From: a virus
Lineage: Duplodnaviria; Heunggongvirae; Uroviricota; Caudoviricetes
IMG/VR virus record: IMGVR_UViG_2548876945_000011
Location: 1 to 41,326 of that record
DNA: 41,326 nt
Direction: 5' to 3' (one strand)
The notes beneath the pieces were generated by a model. The model made no database searches, was not told the origin of the DNA, and saw only the letters and a program-made list of their open reading frames with translations. A program made the position numbers and the translations under genes. Numbering within the stretch: the first letter of the stretch is position 1; every line of letters begins with the position of its first letter. Positions 7,324 through 41,050 of this stretch are shown here, in pieces.

Positions 7324-7355
7324 GGAGTTCTCACACAACCAGTAAGGAATTTAGT

Positions 7356-7634
7356 ATGGTAATTACTTCACTCTGCCCTGTTTGTTTGGCTACATCTTCT
7401 GTGCAGACTTTAGTTGAAGGACAGCGCGAATTTTTGAAAATTTATCATTGTCCAAATCATGGTAGTTTTGCCGTTCTTCCTGATCTGGACGTGAAATTGC
7501 AAGCAATGAGGTGTTCGTCGGGTTATAAGATTGAGCATTCGGAAGAGGCTATCAGGCTCGATGCACGCTTACGTGAAAGCATACGCCCAGTAGATGGTCC
7601 TCAGTCGAAAATTCCAGTATTCCGCTCTGTCTAG
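7356..7634 (+). CDS. Small zinc-ribbon-like protein, function unknown
   Basis: 92-aa ORF with CPVC...CPNH motif and AAGGA RBS; occupies the sieB-equivalent position opposite the early-left operon. Confidence 0.5.
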   Translation: MVITSLCPVCLATSSVQTLVEGQREFLKIYHCPNHGSFAVLPDLDVKLQAMRCSSGYKIEHSEEAIRLDARLRESIRPVDGPQSKIPVFRSV

Positions 7635-7646
7635 TTTTCCCCGACT

Positions 7647-7662
7647 GGCACCCTGTGGTGCC
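7647..7662. terminator. GC stem-loop between convergent genes (possible terminator)
   Basis: GGCACC-CTGT-GGTGCC hairpin in the 30-bp gap between the 7634 and 7665 stop codons; no clear U-tract. Confidence 0.3.
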
Positions 7663-7664
7663 GG

Positions 7665-7964
7665 TTACATCTCCTCGATCATCGCATTTGCTACGGCCCG
7701 CAGATCTTCCAGTGCACTTTCAACTTTTGGATCTTTTGCGGTCTCACTGACTTTTTTCATGGCATCAGCCATTCTTTTAATCAGATCATTTGGAGTCTCT
7801 TTCGGGTTAGCAGACACCCTGCTGGCCAGCTCCAGTGCAAGACGTGCATCTTTTGGTGTAATGCCTTTATCTTTTGCCATCTCTGCTGCCAGCTCAGAAA
7901 GCTCGGATGCAAGAGTGAGAACGCTTCTTCCCGTTTTTGACGGATATATATCGTGTGTGAACAT
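7665..7964 (-). CDS. Hypothetical helical protein, first gene of the leftward early operon
   Basis: 99-aa ORF with strong GAGAGGAAAAC RBS; sits where lambda N sits but has no arginine-rich motif. Confidence 0.6.
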   Translation of the reverse strand: MFTHDIYPSKTGRSVLTLASELSELAAEMAKDKGITPKDARLALELASRVSANPKETPNDLIKRMADAMKKVSETAKDPKVESALEDLRAVANAMIEEM

Positions 7965-8133
7965 TGTTTTCCTCTCCCCTTAACGCCGGGGTAGCGGAAC
8001 AAAAACCTGCTGCATAGTTAAAGTTGAACCCTGCCGTCATGTTCTTACGCCTCGGGCTGGCTACTTAACCCCTGACCACTGCCTGGTAACTCGAAGTATT
8101 GCCCTGCATTCTGTGGGGCGGGGTGGGTTGGTA

Positions 8134-8178
8134 TTTTTAGTTTAATAAACATTAAACTTAAGTCAAGTAAAAACTAAA
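8134..8178 (-). promoter_or_regulatory. PL-like leftward promoter with flanking operator half-sites
   Basis: On the minus strand TTGACT, 16-bp spacer, TAAACT; flanked by ACTAAAC and an inverted TTTTAGT; mirrors the PR-like element at 9136-9200. Confidence 0.4.
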
Positions 8179-8249
8179 CCATGGAGCGAACAAACACAAC
8201 GCTTTTGATAAAGTCGTTGCGGTTGTTATGTTTCTATTGGTAGTGAAAG

Positions 8250-8528
8250 TTAGGGAAACTGGCGTCTTGCGTGGATCACGTTTACTACTTCAACGCTTGA
8301 TGTTGTTACGCGGTATAGAATTATATAGTTAGGGTGGGCTACAATCTCACGCAAGCCAGGTACTCTGTCGCTTGGTGGGTATAAATACGGATGTTCGGAT
8401 AACGGCAGCACACAACCCCTTAATCGCTGCCATAAGCGTTCAGCCGCATCTATGTCGAAACGAGCAATATAGCTAGTTATATCATCTAGGTCGGTATCTG
8501 CGCTTTCAAGCCATAACACGGGTAACAT
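8250..8528 (-). CDS. parE: ParE/RelE-superfamily toxin
   Basis: 92-aa product from MLPVLWLESADTDLDDITSYIA... with the ParE-like C-terminal pattern; starts 1 nt after the antitoxin stop. Confidence 0.75.
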   Translation of the reverse strand: MLPVLWLESADTDLDDITSYIARFDIDAAERLWQRLRGCVLPLSEHPYLYPPSDRVPGLREIVAHPNYIILYRVTTSSVEVVNVIHARRQFP

Positions 8529-8529
8529 T

Positions 8530-8721
8530 TTACTGCTTGCTCCGTTCCTTGCGCATTTTAGCAAAGCGTTCTGCCATTCTGCGCTCAACTTCGTCATGGG
8601 GAATTGCTGGGCGCGGATCTGCAAGGCTCGTTGCTACTTTCGCACGCAGCCATTCGTTGTAACTGTTTTCTTGTTCAATGGTTTCAAATTCAGAAACCAT
8701 TGGTGAAAGGGCTCTATTCAT
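8530..8721 (-). CDS. paaA: Antitoxin of the ParE module (PaaA-like)
   Basis: 63-aa product MNRALSPMVSEFETIEQENSYNEWLRAK... with GGAGG RBS, immediately upstream of the toxin; resembles PaaA2 as I remember it. Confidence 0.6.
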   Translation of the reverse strand: MNRALSPMVSEFETIEQENSYNEWLRAKVATSLADPRPAIPHDEVERRMAERFAKMRKERSKQ

Positions 8722-8741
8722 GTTTCCTCCGGTTTTATAAC

Positions 8742-9137
8742 TCAGGCGCGGCGGCATTTTTGCGCCGCAATCCATCTCGCTATGAGATCTTCCATTGATT
8801 CTTTTTTCTGCTTTAACTCGCTGATTATCTGGCGTTGCTCATCCTCAGGGAAGGCTGAAAAAATCTGCAATAATTCCAGTTGATTAGACGTTAACCCTGC
8901 ATGTGGTGGAGAAGCTTCCGGTTGTTCTGCGTATTCCGCATCCAGATACCCTTCCGGCATCCCGTATGTTTGCTCTATTCTTCTGGCAGCCTTTTCTCCA
9001 AACGAGGCCCTCCCACTCATTAGTTGAGATAGGTAGCTCTTCTCTTTGGGTGGCAGAGTTTTATCTTTAAACCACTCCTTGAGACGTAAACGGCGAATTT
9101 CTTTTTTTTGCATGTGGTAATTATCTTTAGTAATCAC
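8742..9137 (-). CDS. paaR: HTH XRE-family repressor (CI analogue, PaaR/RacR-like) lacking a peptidase domain
   Basis: 123-131 aa with HTH (KSYLSQLMSGRASFGEKAARRIEQ); divergent from ydaS; first gene of the repressor-antitoxin-toxin operon. The first in-frame codon is GTG at 9137; the first ATG is at 9113. Confidence 0.7.
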   Translation of the reverse strand: MITKDNYHMQKKEIRRLRLKEWFKDKTLPPKEKSYLSQLMSGRASFGEKAARRIEQTYGMPEGYLDAEYAEQPEASPPHAGLTSNQLELLQIFSAFPEDEQRQIISELKQKKESMEDLIARWIAAQKCRRA

Positions 9138-9200
9138 TAAACAAGCAAATACTTGACTTAATGGTTTATTAAATACTAAACTCGCAAAAAAACACTAAAC
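9136..9200. promoter_or_regulatory. Divergent promoter/operator region (PR-like) with three ACTAAAC repeats
   Basis: ACTAAAC at 9136-9142, 9175-9181 and 9194-9200; TTGACT at 9153-9158 with 18-bp spacer to TAAACT at 9177-9182, upstream of ydaS. Confidence 0.45.
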
Positions 9201-9210
9201 CGAGGAAGGT

Positions 9211-9513
9211 ATGACATTAAAAGAGTTTATTAAATCATTGAGGGTTGGTGATGCTAAGAAATTCGCGGCCAGACTTGGTGTATCGCCATCTTACTTATCG
9301 CAAATGGCGTCTGGACGAGCAGCTATATCTCCAACCCGCGCCCTTATGATCGAATCTGCGACGGAAGGCCAAGTAAGTAGGGCGGAGCTACGACCCCATG
9401 ATTGGGAGCTTATTTGGCCTGAGTATGCGAGCGGCATTCGTTTGGGGCAAACACATGTAGTTCATGCTGAAGGTGATTGTAGTGCATGCTTATCTGATGG
9501 AGTTGATTCATGA
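9211..9513 (+). CDS. ydaS: YdaS-like Cro-type HTH regulator
   Basis: 100-aa ORF (MTLKEFIKSLRVGDAKKFAARLGVSPSYLSQ...) transcribed divergently from the repressor; matches my memory of Rac YdaS. Confidence 0.75.
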   Translation: MTLKEFIKSLRVGDAKKFAARLGVSPSYLSQMASGRAAISPTRALMIESATEGQVSRAELRPHDWELIWPEYASGIRLGQTHVVHAEGDCSACLSDGVDS

Positions 9514-9935
9514 AAATCAAGCATGAACACATCCGCATGGCGATGAATGCCTGGGCGCATCCGGACGGTGAAAAAGTTCCGGCAGCTGAAATAACCAGGG
9601 CTTATTTTGAACTGGGTATGACGTTCCCAGAACTGTATGACGACAGCCATCCGGAAGCCCTGGCTCGTAATACCCAGAAAATTTTCCGCTGGGTGGAGAA
9701 AGACACCCCTGATGCGGTTAAAAAAATTCAGGCGCTGTTACCGGCGATCGAAAAGGCAATGCCACCTCTGCTGGTGGCCCGAATGCGCAGCCACAGTTCA
9801 GCCTATTTTCGGGAGCTGGTGGAGACGCGGGAACGACTGGTGAGAGACGCTGATGATTTTGTCGCAGTGGCGATCGCTGGTTTCAATCAGATGAATCGTG
9901 GTGGCCCGGCGGGAAATGCCGTGGTCGTTCATTAA
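9510..9935 (+). CDS. ydaT: YdaT-like protein (CII-like regulator/toxin family)
   Basis: 141-aa ORF overlapping the ydaS stop by 4 nt (MKIKHEHIRMAMNAWAHPDGEK...). Confidence 0.75.
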   Translation: MKIKHEHIRMAMNAWAHPDGEKVPAAEITRAYFELGMTFPELYDDSHPEALARNTQKIFRWVEKDTPDAVKKIQALLPAIEKAMPPLLVARMRSHSSAYFRELVETRERLVRDADDFVAVAIAGFNQMNRGGPAGNAVVVH

Positions 9936-9956
9936 GAATGGTATAGGAGAAAATCG

Positions 9957-10250
9957 ATGACATTTACAAATGAAGGTCGAATTGTTTTTGATTTTGAGTA
10001 CGAAACTCCATTGCAGAGATTGATTATGTTAAGAATTTTCTGCTCCGGGAGTGGCGATGGTGGGCGTGAAAAGCGTTTTGAAGATCAGGAATTCCGACGT
10101 TTTTGTTGTTGTACGTTTGATGAGTTTGAGCAGGCTATCGCCAAACTTATCGAGATGGGGGTGATTCATAAAATAAGTTATGGATATCAATACGGAAAGC
10201 CATCAAGTGGTTACATCATCAAAGATCCAGATGAAATTATTCAGTTATGA
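9957..10250 (+). CDS. Hypothetical protein
   Basis: 97-aa ORF with GGAGA RBS, overlapping the start of the replication initiator gene. Confidence 0.5.
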   Translation: MTFTNEGRIVFDFEYETPLQRLIMLRIFCSGSGDGGREKRFEDQEFRRFCCCTFDEFEQAIAKLIEMGVIHKISYGYQYGKPSSGYIIKDPDEIIQL

Positions 10251-11212
10251 GTCTTCTTTTTGCTGAACGCCCGCTGGTTATTAACACGCAGCTGGCGATG
10301 AAAATTGGTCTGAACGAAGCCATCGTGTTGCAGCAGCTGCATTACTGGTTGAGAGATACCGGTTCCGGCATGGAATGTGATGGTGTTCGCTGGATTTATA
10401 ACACAACAGAACAATGGCTGGAACAGTTCCCGTTCTGGTCAGAGTCAACGTTAAAACGCGCATTTGCAAGTCTGAAAGCGCTGGGGCTTTTGCGTTGTGA
10501 AAAGCTCAACAAATCAAAGCGTGACATGACTAATTTTTACACGATTAATTACGAGAGCGAGCTTTTAGATGGTGGCAAAGTGAGCGAATCCATCAGGTCA
10601 AAATGCGCCGCTCCATCAGGTCAAAATGACACGATGGAAGAGGCCAAAATGGCACGCTCCATTGGCTCAAAACGACCCAATGTCATCGGGTCAAAATGGC
10701 CTGATGATCTTACAGAGAATACAACAGAGATTACTACAGAGAATAAAAACACTTCTCGTCCGGAAGCTTTGCAACCGGACATGCAGACGGCTGAACAGGA
10801 TTTTTTAACCCGACACCCTGACGCGGTTGTGTTCAGTGCGAAAAAACGCCAGTGGGGCAACCAGGAGGATTTAGCGTGTGCGCAGTGGATCTGGGGACGA
10901 ATCGTGAGTCTTTACGAGCAGGCTGCCAGCGATGATGGCGAAATCATGCGACCGAAAGAACCCAACTGGACTGCATGGGCCAATGATGTGCGCACAATGC
11001 GGATGCTGGATGGCAGAACTCACAGACAAATTTGCGAAATGTTTGGTCGGGTACAGCGGGATCCATTCTGGGTAAAAAACGTCATGAGCCCGTCAAAGCT
11101 TCGCGAAAAATGGGATGAGCTGGTTATTCGTCTGGGGCGTTCACCTGTACAGCGTTGCGTGAATCACATTTCTGAACCGGACACCGAAATTCCGCCGGGC
11201 TTCAGGGGGTAA
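10247..11212 (+). CDS. Replication initiator / replisome organiser (lambda O-like)
   Basis: 321-aa ORF immediately upstream of the DnaC-like gene; contains iterons inside its coding sequence, as lambda O contains ori. Confidence 0.65.
   Translation: MSLLFAERPLVINTQLAMKIGLNEAIVLQQLHYWLRDTGSGMECDGVRWIYNTTEQWLEQFPFWSESTLKRAFASLKALGLLRCEKLNKSKRDMTNFYTINYESELLDGGKVSESIRSKCAAPSGQNDTMEEAKMARSIGSKRPNVIGSKWPDDLTENTTEITTENKNTSRPEALQPDMQTAEQDFLTRHPDAVVFSAKKRQWGNQEDLACAQWIWGRIVSLYEQAASDDGEIMRPKEPNWTAWANDVRTMRMLDGRTHRQICEMFGRVQRDPFWVKNVMSPSKLREKWDELVIRLGRSPVQRCVNHISEPDTEIPPGFRG
10592..10698. repeat. Candidate replication origin: five iterons (consensus ATCrGGTCAAAATG)
   Basis: Direct repeats starting near 10592, 10615, 10638, 10661 and 10685 at about 23-bp spacing, followed by three ACAGAGAwT repeats at 10711-10745. 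Confidence 0.6.
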
Positions 11213-11218
11213 CGAAGC

Positions 11219-11719
11219 ATGAAAAATATTGCGACAGGCGGTGTTCTTGAACGCATCCGTAAGCTGGCTCCGCAGCATGTAACCGCGCCATACCGAACAG
11301 TGGACGAGTGGCGCGAGTGGCAACTTGCTGAAGGCCAGAAACGTAGCGAGGAGATCAACCGCCTGAATCGCCAGTTGCGGGTGGAAAAAATTCTGAATCG
11401 CTCAGGCATCCAGCCGTTGCACCGCAAGTGCTCGTTTGCGAATTACCAGGTGCAGAACGAAGGGCAGCGATACGCGTTAAGCCAGGCGAAATCCATCGCC
11501 GATGAACTGATGACCGGGTGTACAAATTTTGCGTTCAGCGGAAAACCTGGTACCGGGAAAAATCACTTAGCGGCAGCTATCGGGAATCGCCTGCTGAAAG
11601 ACGGTCAGACAGTGATTGTGGTTACCGTGGCTGATGTTATGAGCGCCCTGCACGCCAGCTATGACGACGGGCAGTCAGGCACGCAAAAGTTGCAGGACTG
11701 GATGATGCCGATACCGTAA
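11219..11719 (+). CDS. DnaC-like helicase loader, apparently C-terminally truncated
   Basis: Walker A GKPGTGKNHLAAAIG present, but the ORF stops at 166 aa, before the expected Walker B region, against about 245 aa for DnaC-family proteins. Confidence 0.6.
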   Translation: MKNIATGGVLERIRKLAPQHVTAPYRTVDEWREWQLAEGQKRSEEINRLNRQLRVEKILNRSGIQPLHRKCSFANYQVQNEGQRYALSQAKSIADELMTGCTNFAFSGKPGTGKNHLAAAIGNRLLKDGQTVIVVTVADVMSALHASYDDGQSGTQKLQDWMMPIP

Positions 11720-12228: not shown

Positions 12229-12439
12229 GCGAGATTAATTATCAGGAAGGACATGATTTCGTTATGCTTGATGGAGGGCGCTATATATTTTCCTCGCACC
12301 TGTGATAAAAATGATGAGCCGAGACTGTATTTACGGGACGCTGAGAGAATACCATAGAAAAGCTTATCTAACTTAAGTAGAATTGCTGCGGGTGCTTGAG
12401 GCTATCTGCCTCAGGCATGAACACCAAAGGCAGATAGAG

Positions 12440-12510
12440 AAAAGCCCCAGTTAACATTACGCGTCCTGCAAGACGCTTAACATTAATCTGAGGCTCAATC
12501 TATGAACGGC
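12440..12510 (-). ncRNA. sok: Sok-like antisense RNA (antitoxin of the hok locus)
   Basis: Minus-strand promoter TTGCCT (12545-12540), 17-bp spacer, TAACCT (12522-12517); the transcript would be complementary to the mok start region. Ends are approximate. Confidence 0.4.
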
Positions 12511-12558
12511 AAATCTAGGTTAGCCTCTTACGTGCCGAAAGGCAAGGAGAAGCAGGCT

Positions 12559-12714
12559 ATGAAGCAGCAAAAGGCGATGTTAATCGCCCTGATCGTCATC
12601 TGTTTAACCGTCATAGTGACGGCACTGGTAACGAGGAAAGACCTCTGCGAGGTACGAATCCGAACCGGCCAGACGGAGGTCGCTGTTTTCGTAGACTACG
12701 AATCTGAGAAGTAA
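12559..12714 (+). CDS. hok: Hok/Gef-family type I membrane toxin
   Basis: 51-aa MKQQKAMLIALIVICLTVIVTALVTRKDLCEVRIRTGQTEVAVF...; closely matches the HokD/RelF and HokC sequences I remember; in-frame mok-like leader from 12502. Confidence 0.8.
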   Translation: MKQQKAMLIALIVICLTVIVTALVTRKDLCEVRIRTGQTEVAVFVDYESEK

Positions 12715-14347: not shown

Positions 14348-14407
14348 TCCGAAGCGCCAGCAAAATCTGGCGTCGGGATTGGAACCCCGGATATCGAAAC
14401 GGTGCAT

Positions 14408-14427
14408 ACCGCGCTGGCGGTTTTTTT
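14408..14427 (+). terminator. Candidate tR'-like terminator
   Basis: ACCGC-GCTG-GCGGT hairpin followed by T7, about 60 nt downstream of the candidate late promoter. Confidence 0.4.
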
Positions 14428-14590
14428 ATGCGCTAAGCACAGTCACATTCGCGATTTATGGCGGGCTGTGTGGGGGCACCGAAAGGTGCACCGGATGTTT
14501 CGACCGGTAGTTCCAACCCTGCACAGTTCGCCACCCGATGATTGGAACCTGAAGGTGGTGAGGTAAAAATTATCGAAACGCGAGGTCGTT

Positions 14591-15154
14591 ATGACTGTTC
14601 AAGTTGCTGTCAAAAACCTTTCCCCTGTCACTTATAACCAGATTCCTGTAATCACAACTGAGTTACTCGCCCGCCTTTACGGAACAGAAGCAATCCGTAT
14701 ACAGCAGAATCACCATAAAAATAAATCTCGATTTATTGAGGGAAAACACTTCTTTAAAGCTGTTGGTGATGAGCTCAAAAATTTGCGACTAGTTTTAAAC
14801 GAGTCGCAAAATGAGGTGAAAATTTCTCCAAAAACCCGCTCCCTCATCCTCTGGACAGAACGCGGCGCAGCCCGCCACGCAAAAATGCTCGAAACCGATC
14901 AGGCGTGGGATGTGTTCGAAAGACTGGAAGACTGCTATTTCAGACAAAAGGATCCGTCAGCGCCAGTTTCATGCCAGAAAAGTTACGACACGCGAGTTCT
15001 CTGTTATCAGCGAGGCGGTGTCACTGTTTCCACAATTCAGTTGCGGGATGATGATATTGTTATTTCCCTTGAGTCATGGCTGGAACTGGCGAGAGCCAAT
15101 GGTTGGTTTGTTGTTCGCAGAGATAAACTGGTGGAAAGGCTGATGCAGCTTTAA
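14591..15154 (+). CDS. ORF6N-domain protein (antirepressor-like N-terminal domain)
   Basis: 187 aa; motifs NKSRFIEGKHFF and LILWTERGAARHAKMLETDQAWDVFERLE match my memory of the ORF6N family. Confidence 0.65.
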   Translation: MTVQVAVKNLSPVTYNQIPVITTELLARLYGTEAIRIQQNHHKNKSRFIEGKHFFKAVGDELKNLRLVLNESQNEVKISPKTRSLILWTERGAARHAKMLETDQAWDVFERLEDCYFRQKDPSAPVSCQKSYDTRVLCYQRGGVTVSTIQLRDDDIVISLESWLELARANGWFVVRRDKLVERLMQL

Positions 15155-39929: not shown

Positions 39930-40233
39930 AACCGTAGCACGTCGTATGCAAGAACGTGCCACGGCTGGCTGATGGACGTTCGATAGCGCGAGTTTGAATG
40001 AAAATCAGCCGGAGGTGATTTTACATAATTGTTGCGGAATCATTCAATATAGGGATTGCTTATTTCTGCCTGGATTGGTCTGAAATAGTCCCGAAATTTT
40101 CTCTAAAAAACTCGAAAAAAATGGTAACTAATTGAATGCATTAATATGCAATGGTACGTGTTTGGGATTAAAAGATGAGCGTAATTTTGCTTAACAAATT
40201 AATTTAAAAAGGGTTTCTTGTTTGTTGACGAAA

Positions 40234-40253
40234 ACAGGAATCGTGTTCGGTCT
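40234..40253. repeat. attR core (ACAGGAATCGTGTTCGGTCT)
   Basis: 19/20 match to the attL core at 578-597, with weaker flanking similarity; 140 bp upstream of pphA. Confidence 0.6.
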
Positions 40254-40393
40254 CTTTTTATCTGTTAAAAGCCAGAAGCATTTCCTTCGCTGACTTTATA
40301 GTCAACCATAACACACACTCTACTGTCTGAGTCCAGCGTTTTTTAACATTCTTGTTAAGATTATGTGATCTTTAGCGCGGGAGGAAAATATTG

Positions 40394-41050
40394 ATGAAAC
40401 AGCCTGCGCCCGTTTATCAGAGAATTGCGGGTCATCAATGGCGACATATCTGGCTTTCTGGCGATATACACGGTTGTCTTGAGCAGTTGCGCCGCAAATT
40501 ATGGCATTGTCGTTTTGATCCGTGGCGAGATTTACTTATCTCAGTGGGAGACGTTATCGATCGTGGGCCGCAAAGTTTACGTTGTCTGCAGTTACTGGAA
40601 CAACATTGGGTTTGTGCGGTAAGAGGCAATCATGAACAGATGGCGATGGATGCGCTGGCATCCCAGCAGATGTCTTTGTGGTTGATGAATGGCGGCGACT
40701 GGTTTATTGCGCTGGCAGATAATCAACAGAAACAAGCGAAAACGGCGCTGGAAAAATGTCAGCATTTGCCCTTTATTCTTGAAGTACACAGTCGCACCGG
40801 CAAGCATGTTATTGCTCATGCCGATTATCCAGATGATGTTTATGAATGGCAAAAGGACGTTGATTTGCATCAGGTCTTGTGGAGCCGCTCGCGATTAGGT
40901 GAACGCCAAAAAGGGCAGGGAATTACAGGTGCTGATCATTTCTGGTTTGGTCATACACCGTTGCGACATCGCGTGGATATTGGCAACCTGCATTATATTG
41001 ATACCGGTGCTGTCTTTGGGGGCGAACTGACTCTTGTGCAATTGCAATAA
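40394..41050 (+). CDS. pphA: Serine/threonine protein phosphatase 1 (host gene)
   Basis: 218 aa with metallophosphatase motifs (GDIHGC, GDVIDRG, GNHE); matches my memory of E. coli PphA; GGGAGGAAAAT RBS. Confidence 0.85.
   Translation: MKQPAPVYQRIAGHQWRHIWLSGDIHGCLEQLRRKLWHCRFDPWRDLLISVGDVIDRGPQSLRCLQLLEQHWVCAVRGNHEQMAMDALASQQMSLWLMNGGDWFIALADNQQKQAKTALEKCQHLPFILEVHSRTGKHVIAHADYPDDVYEWQKDVDLHQVLWSRSRLGERQKGQGITGADHFWFGHTPLRHRVDIGNLHYIDTGAVFGGELTLVQLQ

Follow-up and report, generated by a model that had tools for sequence, protein, structure and literature searches.

The lambdoid prophage CP-933P (Sp12) of Escherichia coli O157:H7 carries an immunity cassette, imm933P, in which the genes paaR2, paaA2 and parE2 lie opposite the regulator genes ydaS and ydaT. 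The region was described by Hallez et al. 2010 (as cited in PMC8630535) and dissected experimentally by Jurenas et al. 2021 (mBio 12:e02947-21, PMC8630535), and its YdaT protein was studied by Prolic-Kalinsek et al. 2023 (PMC9986795). The three genes paaR2-paaA2-parE2 form one operon under the control of PaaR2, the promoters PR, PRM and PL are all repressed by PaaR2 and by YdaS, low PaaR2 activates PRM, and YdaT activates PRE (PMC8630535). The locus is bistable, and the cassette stabilizes a mini-F plasmid through post-segregational killing (PMC8630535). Within the cassette, the toxin–antitoxin pair paaA2-parE2 takes the place of the lambda genes rexAB (PMC9986795). The locus analysed here lies in a window of 41,326 nucleotides, positions 1–41,326 of IMG/VR record IMGVR_UViG_2548876945_000011 from a virus of the Caudoviricetes, and was compared with these systems.

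As judged from the sequence, positions 7978–9935 of the window are almost certainly an allele of the imm933P cassette. A DNA alignment revealed near-identity to the O157:H7 chromosome NZ_AP018488.1 (CP-933P/Sp12-type locus) from 7978 to about 9560; the sharing fades within ydaT beyond this point and stops at the ydaT stop codon. On the left, the common block and the published pCP-933P insert have exactly the same boundary, 7978. Primers for the EDL933 locus were taken from Table S3 of Jurenas et al. 2021 and mapped onto the window, where 28 of them are colinear across 8133–9542 (25 perfect matches and 3 with a single mismatch). They delimit the fragment used in electrophoretic mobility shift assays, which is the 97-bp paaR2–ydaS intergenic region (9114–9210; primers FL1/FL2, exact), the PRM/PR reporter fragment (9113–9186), the PL933P reporter fragment (8133–8249; primers F-PL at 8229–8249 and R-PL at 8133–8154, 0 mismatches), and the PRE933P fragment (9419–9538; primers at 9419–9437 and 9519–9538). 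Overall, the window shares with CP-933P the gene order and orientation, the promoter fragments and the YdaT operator, and both the gaps between the genes and the 97-bp intergenic length equal the published values (PMC8630535). An initial annotation, made from the sequence alone, had described three stacked minus-strand open reading frames with gaps of 1 and 20 bp, which are present as claimed, and a resemblance to the PaaR-PaaA-ParE module of O157 cryptic prophages, which is correct and in fact amounts to identity. The module, its promoters, operators and regulators, the bistability and the addiction are all already published and nothing in them is new here.

The possibility that the window is CP-933P itself was ruled out, as the primers for the CP-933P flanks and for the 3' end of ydaT do not map and primer mapping revealed single-nucleotide differences at 9174 and 9240. 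The flanks of the cassette are unrelated to those of CP-933P. Together with the abrupt start at 7978 and the decay within ydaT, the unrelated flanks indicate that the cassette, toxin–antitoxin pair included, is one exchangeable mosaic unit, and its presence in a genome unrelated to CP-933P elsewhere is ordinary lambdoid mosaicism. The block from 7978 to ydaT moves as a discrete unit among unrelated lambdoid or myovirus-tailed prophages. In 595 of the 5,426 complete E. coli genomes (~11%), at least 80% of 8100–9215 is covered, with a best match of 99.7% identity; no complete E. coli genome reaches this coverage for 7600–10300. This mobility and frequency fit the proposed stabilization of the cassette by the toxin–antitoxin pair. 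The whole cassette is also found in Escherichia phage Evi (LR597642.1) at ~97–99% DNA identity, with an identical ParE2 and conserved operators in both operator clusters (OR and OL). Phage Evi differs from the window by one K-to-R change in PaaA2, by the residues E-I in the PaaR2 linker and by a C at the equivalent of 9174, as in O157:H7. The parE2 open reading frame of phage Evi (LR597642.1 3280–3558) is intact and encodes the identical protein, and it is unannotated in the record.

The distal gene of the leftward operon, parE2 (8250–8528, minus strand), encodes a 92-residue ParE-family toxin that is identical in 92 of 92 residues to the O157:H7 protein ‘ParE’ of PDB 5CW7_B/5CZE. It matches the Pfam family PF05016 ParE_toxin (E = 1.9e-16, 60.9 bits against a curated cut-off of 23), and the similarity of this open reading frame to ParE toxins, which the initial annotation had offered for checking, is therefore confirmed. 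The match to Caulobacter ParE1 (3KXE) is weak but significant (3.6e-5), other ParE structures were also matched, and the identical ParE2 sequence was found on at least 1000 contigs. One nucleotide separates parE2 from the antitoxin gene paaA2 (8530–8721, minus strand), whose product of 63 amino acids is identical to the PaaA2 of PDB 3ZBE/5CW7 over residues 2–63 (62/62). PaaA2 matches Pfam PF21217 PaaA2 (E = 1e-19, 70.7 bits, cut-off 27) and the NCBIfam equivalog model NF050103 ‘RelB family antitoxin’ (5e-24). PF21217 is its sole Pfam match, and no ParD, ribbon-helix-helix or other DNA-binding Pfam family was found in it at E ≤ 0.01, in agreement with the published absence of a DNA-binding domain or motif (PMC8630535). 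Of the earlier description as a ParD/ParE-type pair, the toxin and the antitoxin role hold, whereas the ParD label does not, as the antitoxin belongs to a family of its own. The position of the pair in the slot of lambda rexAB, also proposed earlier, is stated in the same words in PMC9986795. The 20-bp gap between paaA2 and paaR2 contains the Shine–Dalgarno sequence GGAGGAAAC. Just downstream of parE2, RNA folding of 8168–8262 (minus strand; −17.7 kcal/mol, z = −2.66) points to a candidate weak terminator hairpin at 8189–8227 on the minus strand. This hairpin may, with low confidence, end the paaR2-paaA2-parE2 transcript; a consensus scan called no terminator past parE2.

The repressor gene paaR2 (8742–9113, minus strand) encodes a protein of 123 amino acids. 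When read from the ATG at 9113, residues 1–65 are identical to the N-terminal domain in PDB 7NKV/8C3K/8C3L (‘phage repressor protein CI’), and the whole protein is identical to the O157:H7 allele in 121 of 123 residues, with EA instead of GG at residues 66 and 67 in the interdomain linker. The gene had first been placed at 8742–9137. The stop at 8742 stands, and the GTG start at 9137 (131 amino acids) was rejected, as the published mRNA is leaderless, with the +1 determined by 5'-RACE at the ATG, and the sequenced N-terminus is MQKKE (PMC8630535). The published mass likewise excludes the GTG, which furthermore lies inside the operator palindrome IR1 (9125–9142). The computed mass of the window PaaR2 with a His6 tag is 15,167 Da versus the published 15,081 Da (PMC8630535). 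This mismatch is explained by the linker, because the published protein is the G66 G67 allele; the O157:H7 PaaR2 with His6 has a computed mass of 15,081.0 Da, which equals the published value and therefore identifies the allele studied in PMC8630535. No Pfam family, Peptidase_S24 included, was found in the 123 residues, and residues 68–119 display a weak, sub-threshold match to the C-terminus of DicA. Published PaaR2 is without a peptidase motif, is unresponsive to mitomycin C and is not SOS-cleavable (PMC8630535). The term ‘CI-like repressor’ is thus apt for the function only: because it lacks an S24 domain, PaaR2 is a functional analogue of CI and not a member of the family.

The divergent control region OR (9114–9210, 97 bp), identified by its length and by the primers FL1/FL2, contains PRM933P, PR933P and the PaaR2/YdaS operators. 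In the published footprints PaaR2 protects ~78 bp and YdaS ~65 bp of this intergenic region, and the protected DNA comprises four evenly spaced 18-bp palindromes with the half-site GTTTAGTAA and overlapping direct ‘operators’ (PMC8630535). As reverse complementing TTACTAAAC gives GTTTAGTAA, the motif ACTAAAC that had been noted three times in the divergent region and again near a second leftward promoter is the published half-site. Exact copies start at 9136, 9175 and 9194 and at 8173, as had been reported. Five copies in the whole window versus 3.3 expected are unremarkable; three within 97 bp have a probability of ~8e-8. ACTAAAC forms the right half of 18-bp palindromes, and each 18-mer of the 41-kb window was scored against the published palindromic consensus, with shuffled sequences as background. 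Five 18-mers scored at least 14/18 (0.2–0.3 expected from the shuffles), and the two highest in the window, with 16/18 each, are located in OR at 9125–9142 and 9164–9181. An additional half-site is present at 9192–9200, and the operator palindromes are the same as in O157:H7 except for a single base. The proposal that the repeats flanking the genes are operators accordingly agrees with the published PaaR2/YdaS operators (PMC8630535). One further palindrome, GTATGGTAATTACTTCAC at 7354–7371 (14/18, ~790 bp to the left of OL), was considered as a third operator cluster and set aside, as one such match is compatible with the chance expectation.

The rightward promoter PR933P (9153–9182, plus strand; TTGACT-N18-TAAACT), which drives ydaS-ydaT, was located by the consensus scan within the published fragment 9113–9186, and its −10 element overlaps the ACTAAAC copy at 9175–9181. 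The repressor promoter PRM933P (9120–9148, minus strand) was read from the sequence as TTGCTT (9148–9143)-N17-GATAAT (9125–9120)-N6-ATG with the +1 at 9113, a location that agrees with the published 5'-RACE +1 at the paaR2 ATG (PMC8630535). The consensus scan missed PRM because its −35 element matches at just 3 of 6 positions; the palindrome 9125–9142 occupies its spacer. The TTGACT and TAAACT elements that the initial annotation had assigned to both promoters are indeed shared by two promoters, although the copy in the divergent region belongs to the rightward PR and not to the promoter of the repressor.

The second leftward promoter, which had been placed near 8134–8178, corresponds to the published PL933P and was recovered by the promoter scan on the minus strand as TTGACT (8166–8161)-N16-TAAACT (8144–8139) within the fragment 8133–8249 defined by the published primers. 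Its −35 and −10 elements are the same as those of PR, and PL is repressed ~100-fold by PaaR2 and YdaS (PMC8630535). The PL region aligns to the PR region as an inverted copy, and the 18-mer scan placed the OL operators at 8140–8157 and 8162–8179 (14/18 each). An inverted copy of ACTAAAC had also been claimed at PL; no exact inverted copy is present near the promoter, and only copies with one mismatch were found (TTTTAGT at 8135–8141 and GTTTAAT at 8140–8146). Positions 8173–8179 read ACTAAAC in the window and ACTAAAT in O157:H7. The first open reading frame downstream of PL (7665–7964, minus strand; 99 amino acids) has no Pfam or PHROG family. It lies to the left of the shared block, and the PL-proximal genes of CP-933P are different (an ECs_2282-family protein and ydfC). 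More than 500 E. coli contigs encode its product in exactly this sequence, and Salmonella also has relatives from the same cluster.

On the other side of OR, ydaS (9211–9513, plus strand) encodes a Cro analogue of 100 amino acids (Pfam YdaS_toxin, 3.9e-12; HTH_3, 1.4e-6) that is identical to the O157:H7 allele in 99 of 100 residues, with A instead of T at residue 37. The adjoining ydaT (9510–9935, plus strand) encodes a CII analogue of 141 amino acids (Pfam YdaT_toxin, 1.1e-9), which diverges from the O157:H7 allele mostly beyond about residue 60. The earlier reading of these genes as a Cro/CII-like pair opposite the repressor is supported by the Pfam matches and by the published Cro- and CII-like action (PMC8630535). 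YdaT is a POU-type DNA-binding tetramer whose operator TTGATT-N6-AATCAA at the ydaS/ydaT junction was defined by footprinting (PMC9986795). The sole exact match to this operator (OM) in the window is located at 9503–9520 (plus strand), at the same junction and within the PRE933P fragment. Apart from these differences in coding sequence and the PaaR2 linker, a few silent changes separate the window from O157:H7.

While identity and anatomy were computed here, the literature on the O157:H7 allele is the source for DNA binding and promoter control, for translation of the leaderless mRNA, and for the bistability, toxicity and killing, and it can only be inferred from near-identity that the present allele behaves in the same way. 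PaaR2, translated from its leaderless mRNA at the ATG 9113, would bind the GTTTAGTAA-type inverted and direct repeats at OR and at OL, a second operator cluster ~1 kb to the left of OR. It would strongly repress PR (ydaS-ydaT) and PL, and PRM would be stimulated at low and repressed at high PaaR2. YdaS, the Cro-like regulator, would contest the same sites with a preference for PRM, giving two heritable, mutually exclusive states, and the CII-like YdaT, acting on TTGATT-N6-AATCAA, would switch on the leftward PRE. Placed where lambda has rexAB, the paaA2-parE2 pair would be co-transcribed with the repressor gene. PaaA2 is predicted to neutralize ParE2 by direct binding and to be degraded by ClpAP and ClpXP; because PaaA2 is protease-labile (PMC8630535), the cassette would be addictive. 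Its loss would free ParE2, expected to be nucleoid-associated, SOS-inducing and probably a topoisomerase poison, and cells that lose the cassette would be killed, which would stabilize the immunity region.

No evidence that contradicts the imm933P assignment was met in the analysis, and four caveats apply to the account given here. The literature names neither a molecular target for ParE2 (PMC8630535) nor the precise bases with which PaaR2 and YdaS make contact (PMC8630535). The control regions differ from O157:H7 in OR, where base 9174 (T in the window, C in O157:H7) adjoins the 5' end of an ACTAAAC half-site and is located 3 nt upstream of the PR −10 element, and at about eight bases just upstream of the PL −35 element (window ACTAAACCATGGAGCG versus O157:H7 ACTAAATCGCGGGACAT). 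Finally, YdaT is only 85% identical to its O157:H7 counterpart. In quantitative terms, the switch could accordingly behave differently in the two alleles.

Alternative readings concern the role of the toxin–antitoxin pair and of its neighbours. A conventional ParD/ParE module that merely sits beside a phage repressor, with an antitoxin that binds its own promoter and expression independent of the switch, would agree with the genuine ParE family membership of the toxin and with the RefSeq label of the antitoxin as RelB-family type II. Such a self-regulating module is very improbable, as PaaA2 matches the PaaA2 family alone (a 33-position profile) and no ribbon-helix-helix, ParD or other DNA-binding family, and as published work describes the lack of a DNA-binding domain and a single PaaR2-regulated operon (PMC8630535). 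Furthermore, the 20-bp gap between paaR2 and paaA2 contains a Shine–Dalgarno sequence and, in the consensus scan, no minus-strand promoter. The names ‘YdaS_toxin’ (Pfam) and ‘toxin YdaT family protein’ (RefSeq) suggest in turn that ydaS-ydaT might itself be a toxin–antitoxin pair, which would place two such systems back to back. This is extremely improbable, and for the O157:H7 allele already disproved, given that no toxicity of YdaT was found and both proteins are transcription regulators (PMC8630535), and that YdaT is a DNA-binding tetramer with a defined operator (PMC9986795), the site of which is conserved at 9503–9520.

An exclusion function deserves more weight. Phage defence by type II toxin–antitoxin systems is established in other systems, and the pair could act in abortive infection, as rexAB-like phage exclusion, instead of or besides addiction if an infection depletes PaaA2 and frees ParE2. 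The pair occupies the same position downstream of the repressor as rexAB (PMC9986795), is expressed in both states of the switch and includes a protease-labile antitoxin (PMC8630535). Exclusion is nevertheless unlikely, as neither study offers experimental support for it (PMC8630535, PMC9986795), and the effect demonstrated for the cassette is plasmid stabilization by post-segregational killing with no steady-state ParE2 activity (PMC8630535).

As in lambda, a leftward leaderless repressor gene is followed by two accessory genes, PRM and PR diverge across repeated operators, a second operator cluster and PL lie to the left, and Cro-like and CII-like genes with a CII-dependent PRE lie to the right (PMC8630535). 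A sequence relationship to lambda cI-rexA-rexB is undetectable, however, and the two systems differ in that PaaR2 is without the S24 peptidase domain and not SOS-cleavable, that four 18-bp repeats with overlapping direct repeats stand in place of three operators, that a toxin–antitoxin pair replaces rexAB, and that YdaT is a POU-domain tetramer rather than a protein of the CII fold (PMC9986795). The toxin shares its fold and family (PF05016) with the canonical ParD-ParE systems of RK2, Caulobacter and Vibrio, whereas the antitoxin is without a ribbon-helix-helix domain and regulation is exerted by a separate repressor, resulting in a three-component system. Crystal structures of ParE2-PaaA2, of the PaaR2 N-terminal domain and of YdaT are already available, and the locus is of little value as a discovery. 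It provides a natural allele for comparison with O157:H7, with the EA linker in PaaR2, A37 in YdaS, T9174 in OR and the OL-proximal variant. Public annotation still names YdaT a ‘toxin’, and RefSeq genomes list PaaR2 as a ‘hypothetical protein’.

The window contains a whole prophage of ~39.6 kb, bounded by attachment sites at the sdsR/ryeA-pphA locus, and includes both attachment junctions. The prophage is bounded by imperfect 33-bp direct repeats (CGAAnACAGGAATCGTnTTCGGTCTnTTTTTA) at 572–604 and 40228–40260. The left repeat is the 3' end of the small RNA gene sdsR/ryeB (463–607; Rfam SdsR_RyeB and SraC_RyeA), and the host phosphatase gene pphA (40391–41050; NCBIfam equivalog, 443 bits) is located just to the right of the right repeat. 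The early region is Rac-like (integrase, RalR/RalA, RecT, RecE and Kil) and the late region is similar to those of SEN34-like myoviruses and of induced E. coli prophages. In contrast to the cryptic CP-933P, the prophage appears mostly complete. The DnaC-like helicase-loader gene (11219–11719) encodes 166 amino acids that span positions 42–152 of the 238-position IstB_IS21 profile, and its counterpart in the related phage vB_EcoS-666R9 has 248 amino acids. Unrelated small open reading frames (DUF7167 and others) seem to have taken the place of the 3' half of the prophage gene, and the prophage may therefore be replication-defective.

A small RNA, IsrK (14354–14427), and a C4 antisense RNA (14454–14538) are encoded directly upstream of an ORF6N-domain protein (14591–15154), and this module (14354–15154) resembles the P1 immI and Gifsy antirepressor modules. 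The module could be an induction route for a repressor without a self-cleavage domain. A more elaborate scheme based on gene content, in which the antirepressor-like ORF6N protein (14591–15154) flips the switch while ParE2-PaaA2 guards the cassette against heteroimmune recombination or serves in rexAB-like exclusion, is doubtful. Two other toxin–antitoxin systems are encoded in the prophage. One is a type I hok/sok system at 12390–12714 (Rfam sok, 112 bits; HOK_GEF, 1e-22, for the open reading frame 12502–12714). The other is a Rac-type RalR/RalA system at 2169–2579, with the RalA small RNA at 2169–2347 on the plus strand (219 bits) and a RalR-like open reading frame (MRYDDVKPCPFCG...) inside 2346–2579 on the minus strand, adjoining recT.

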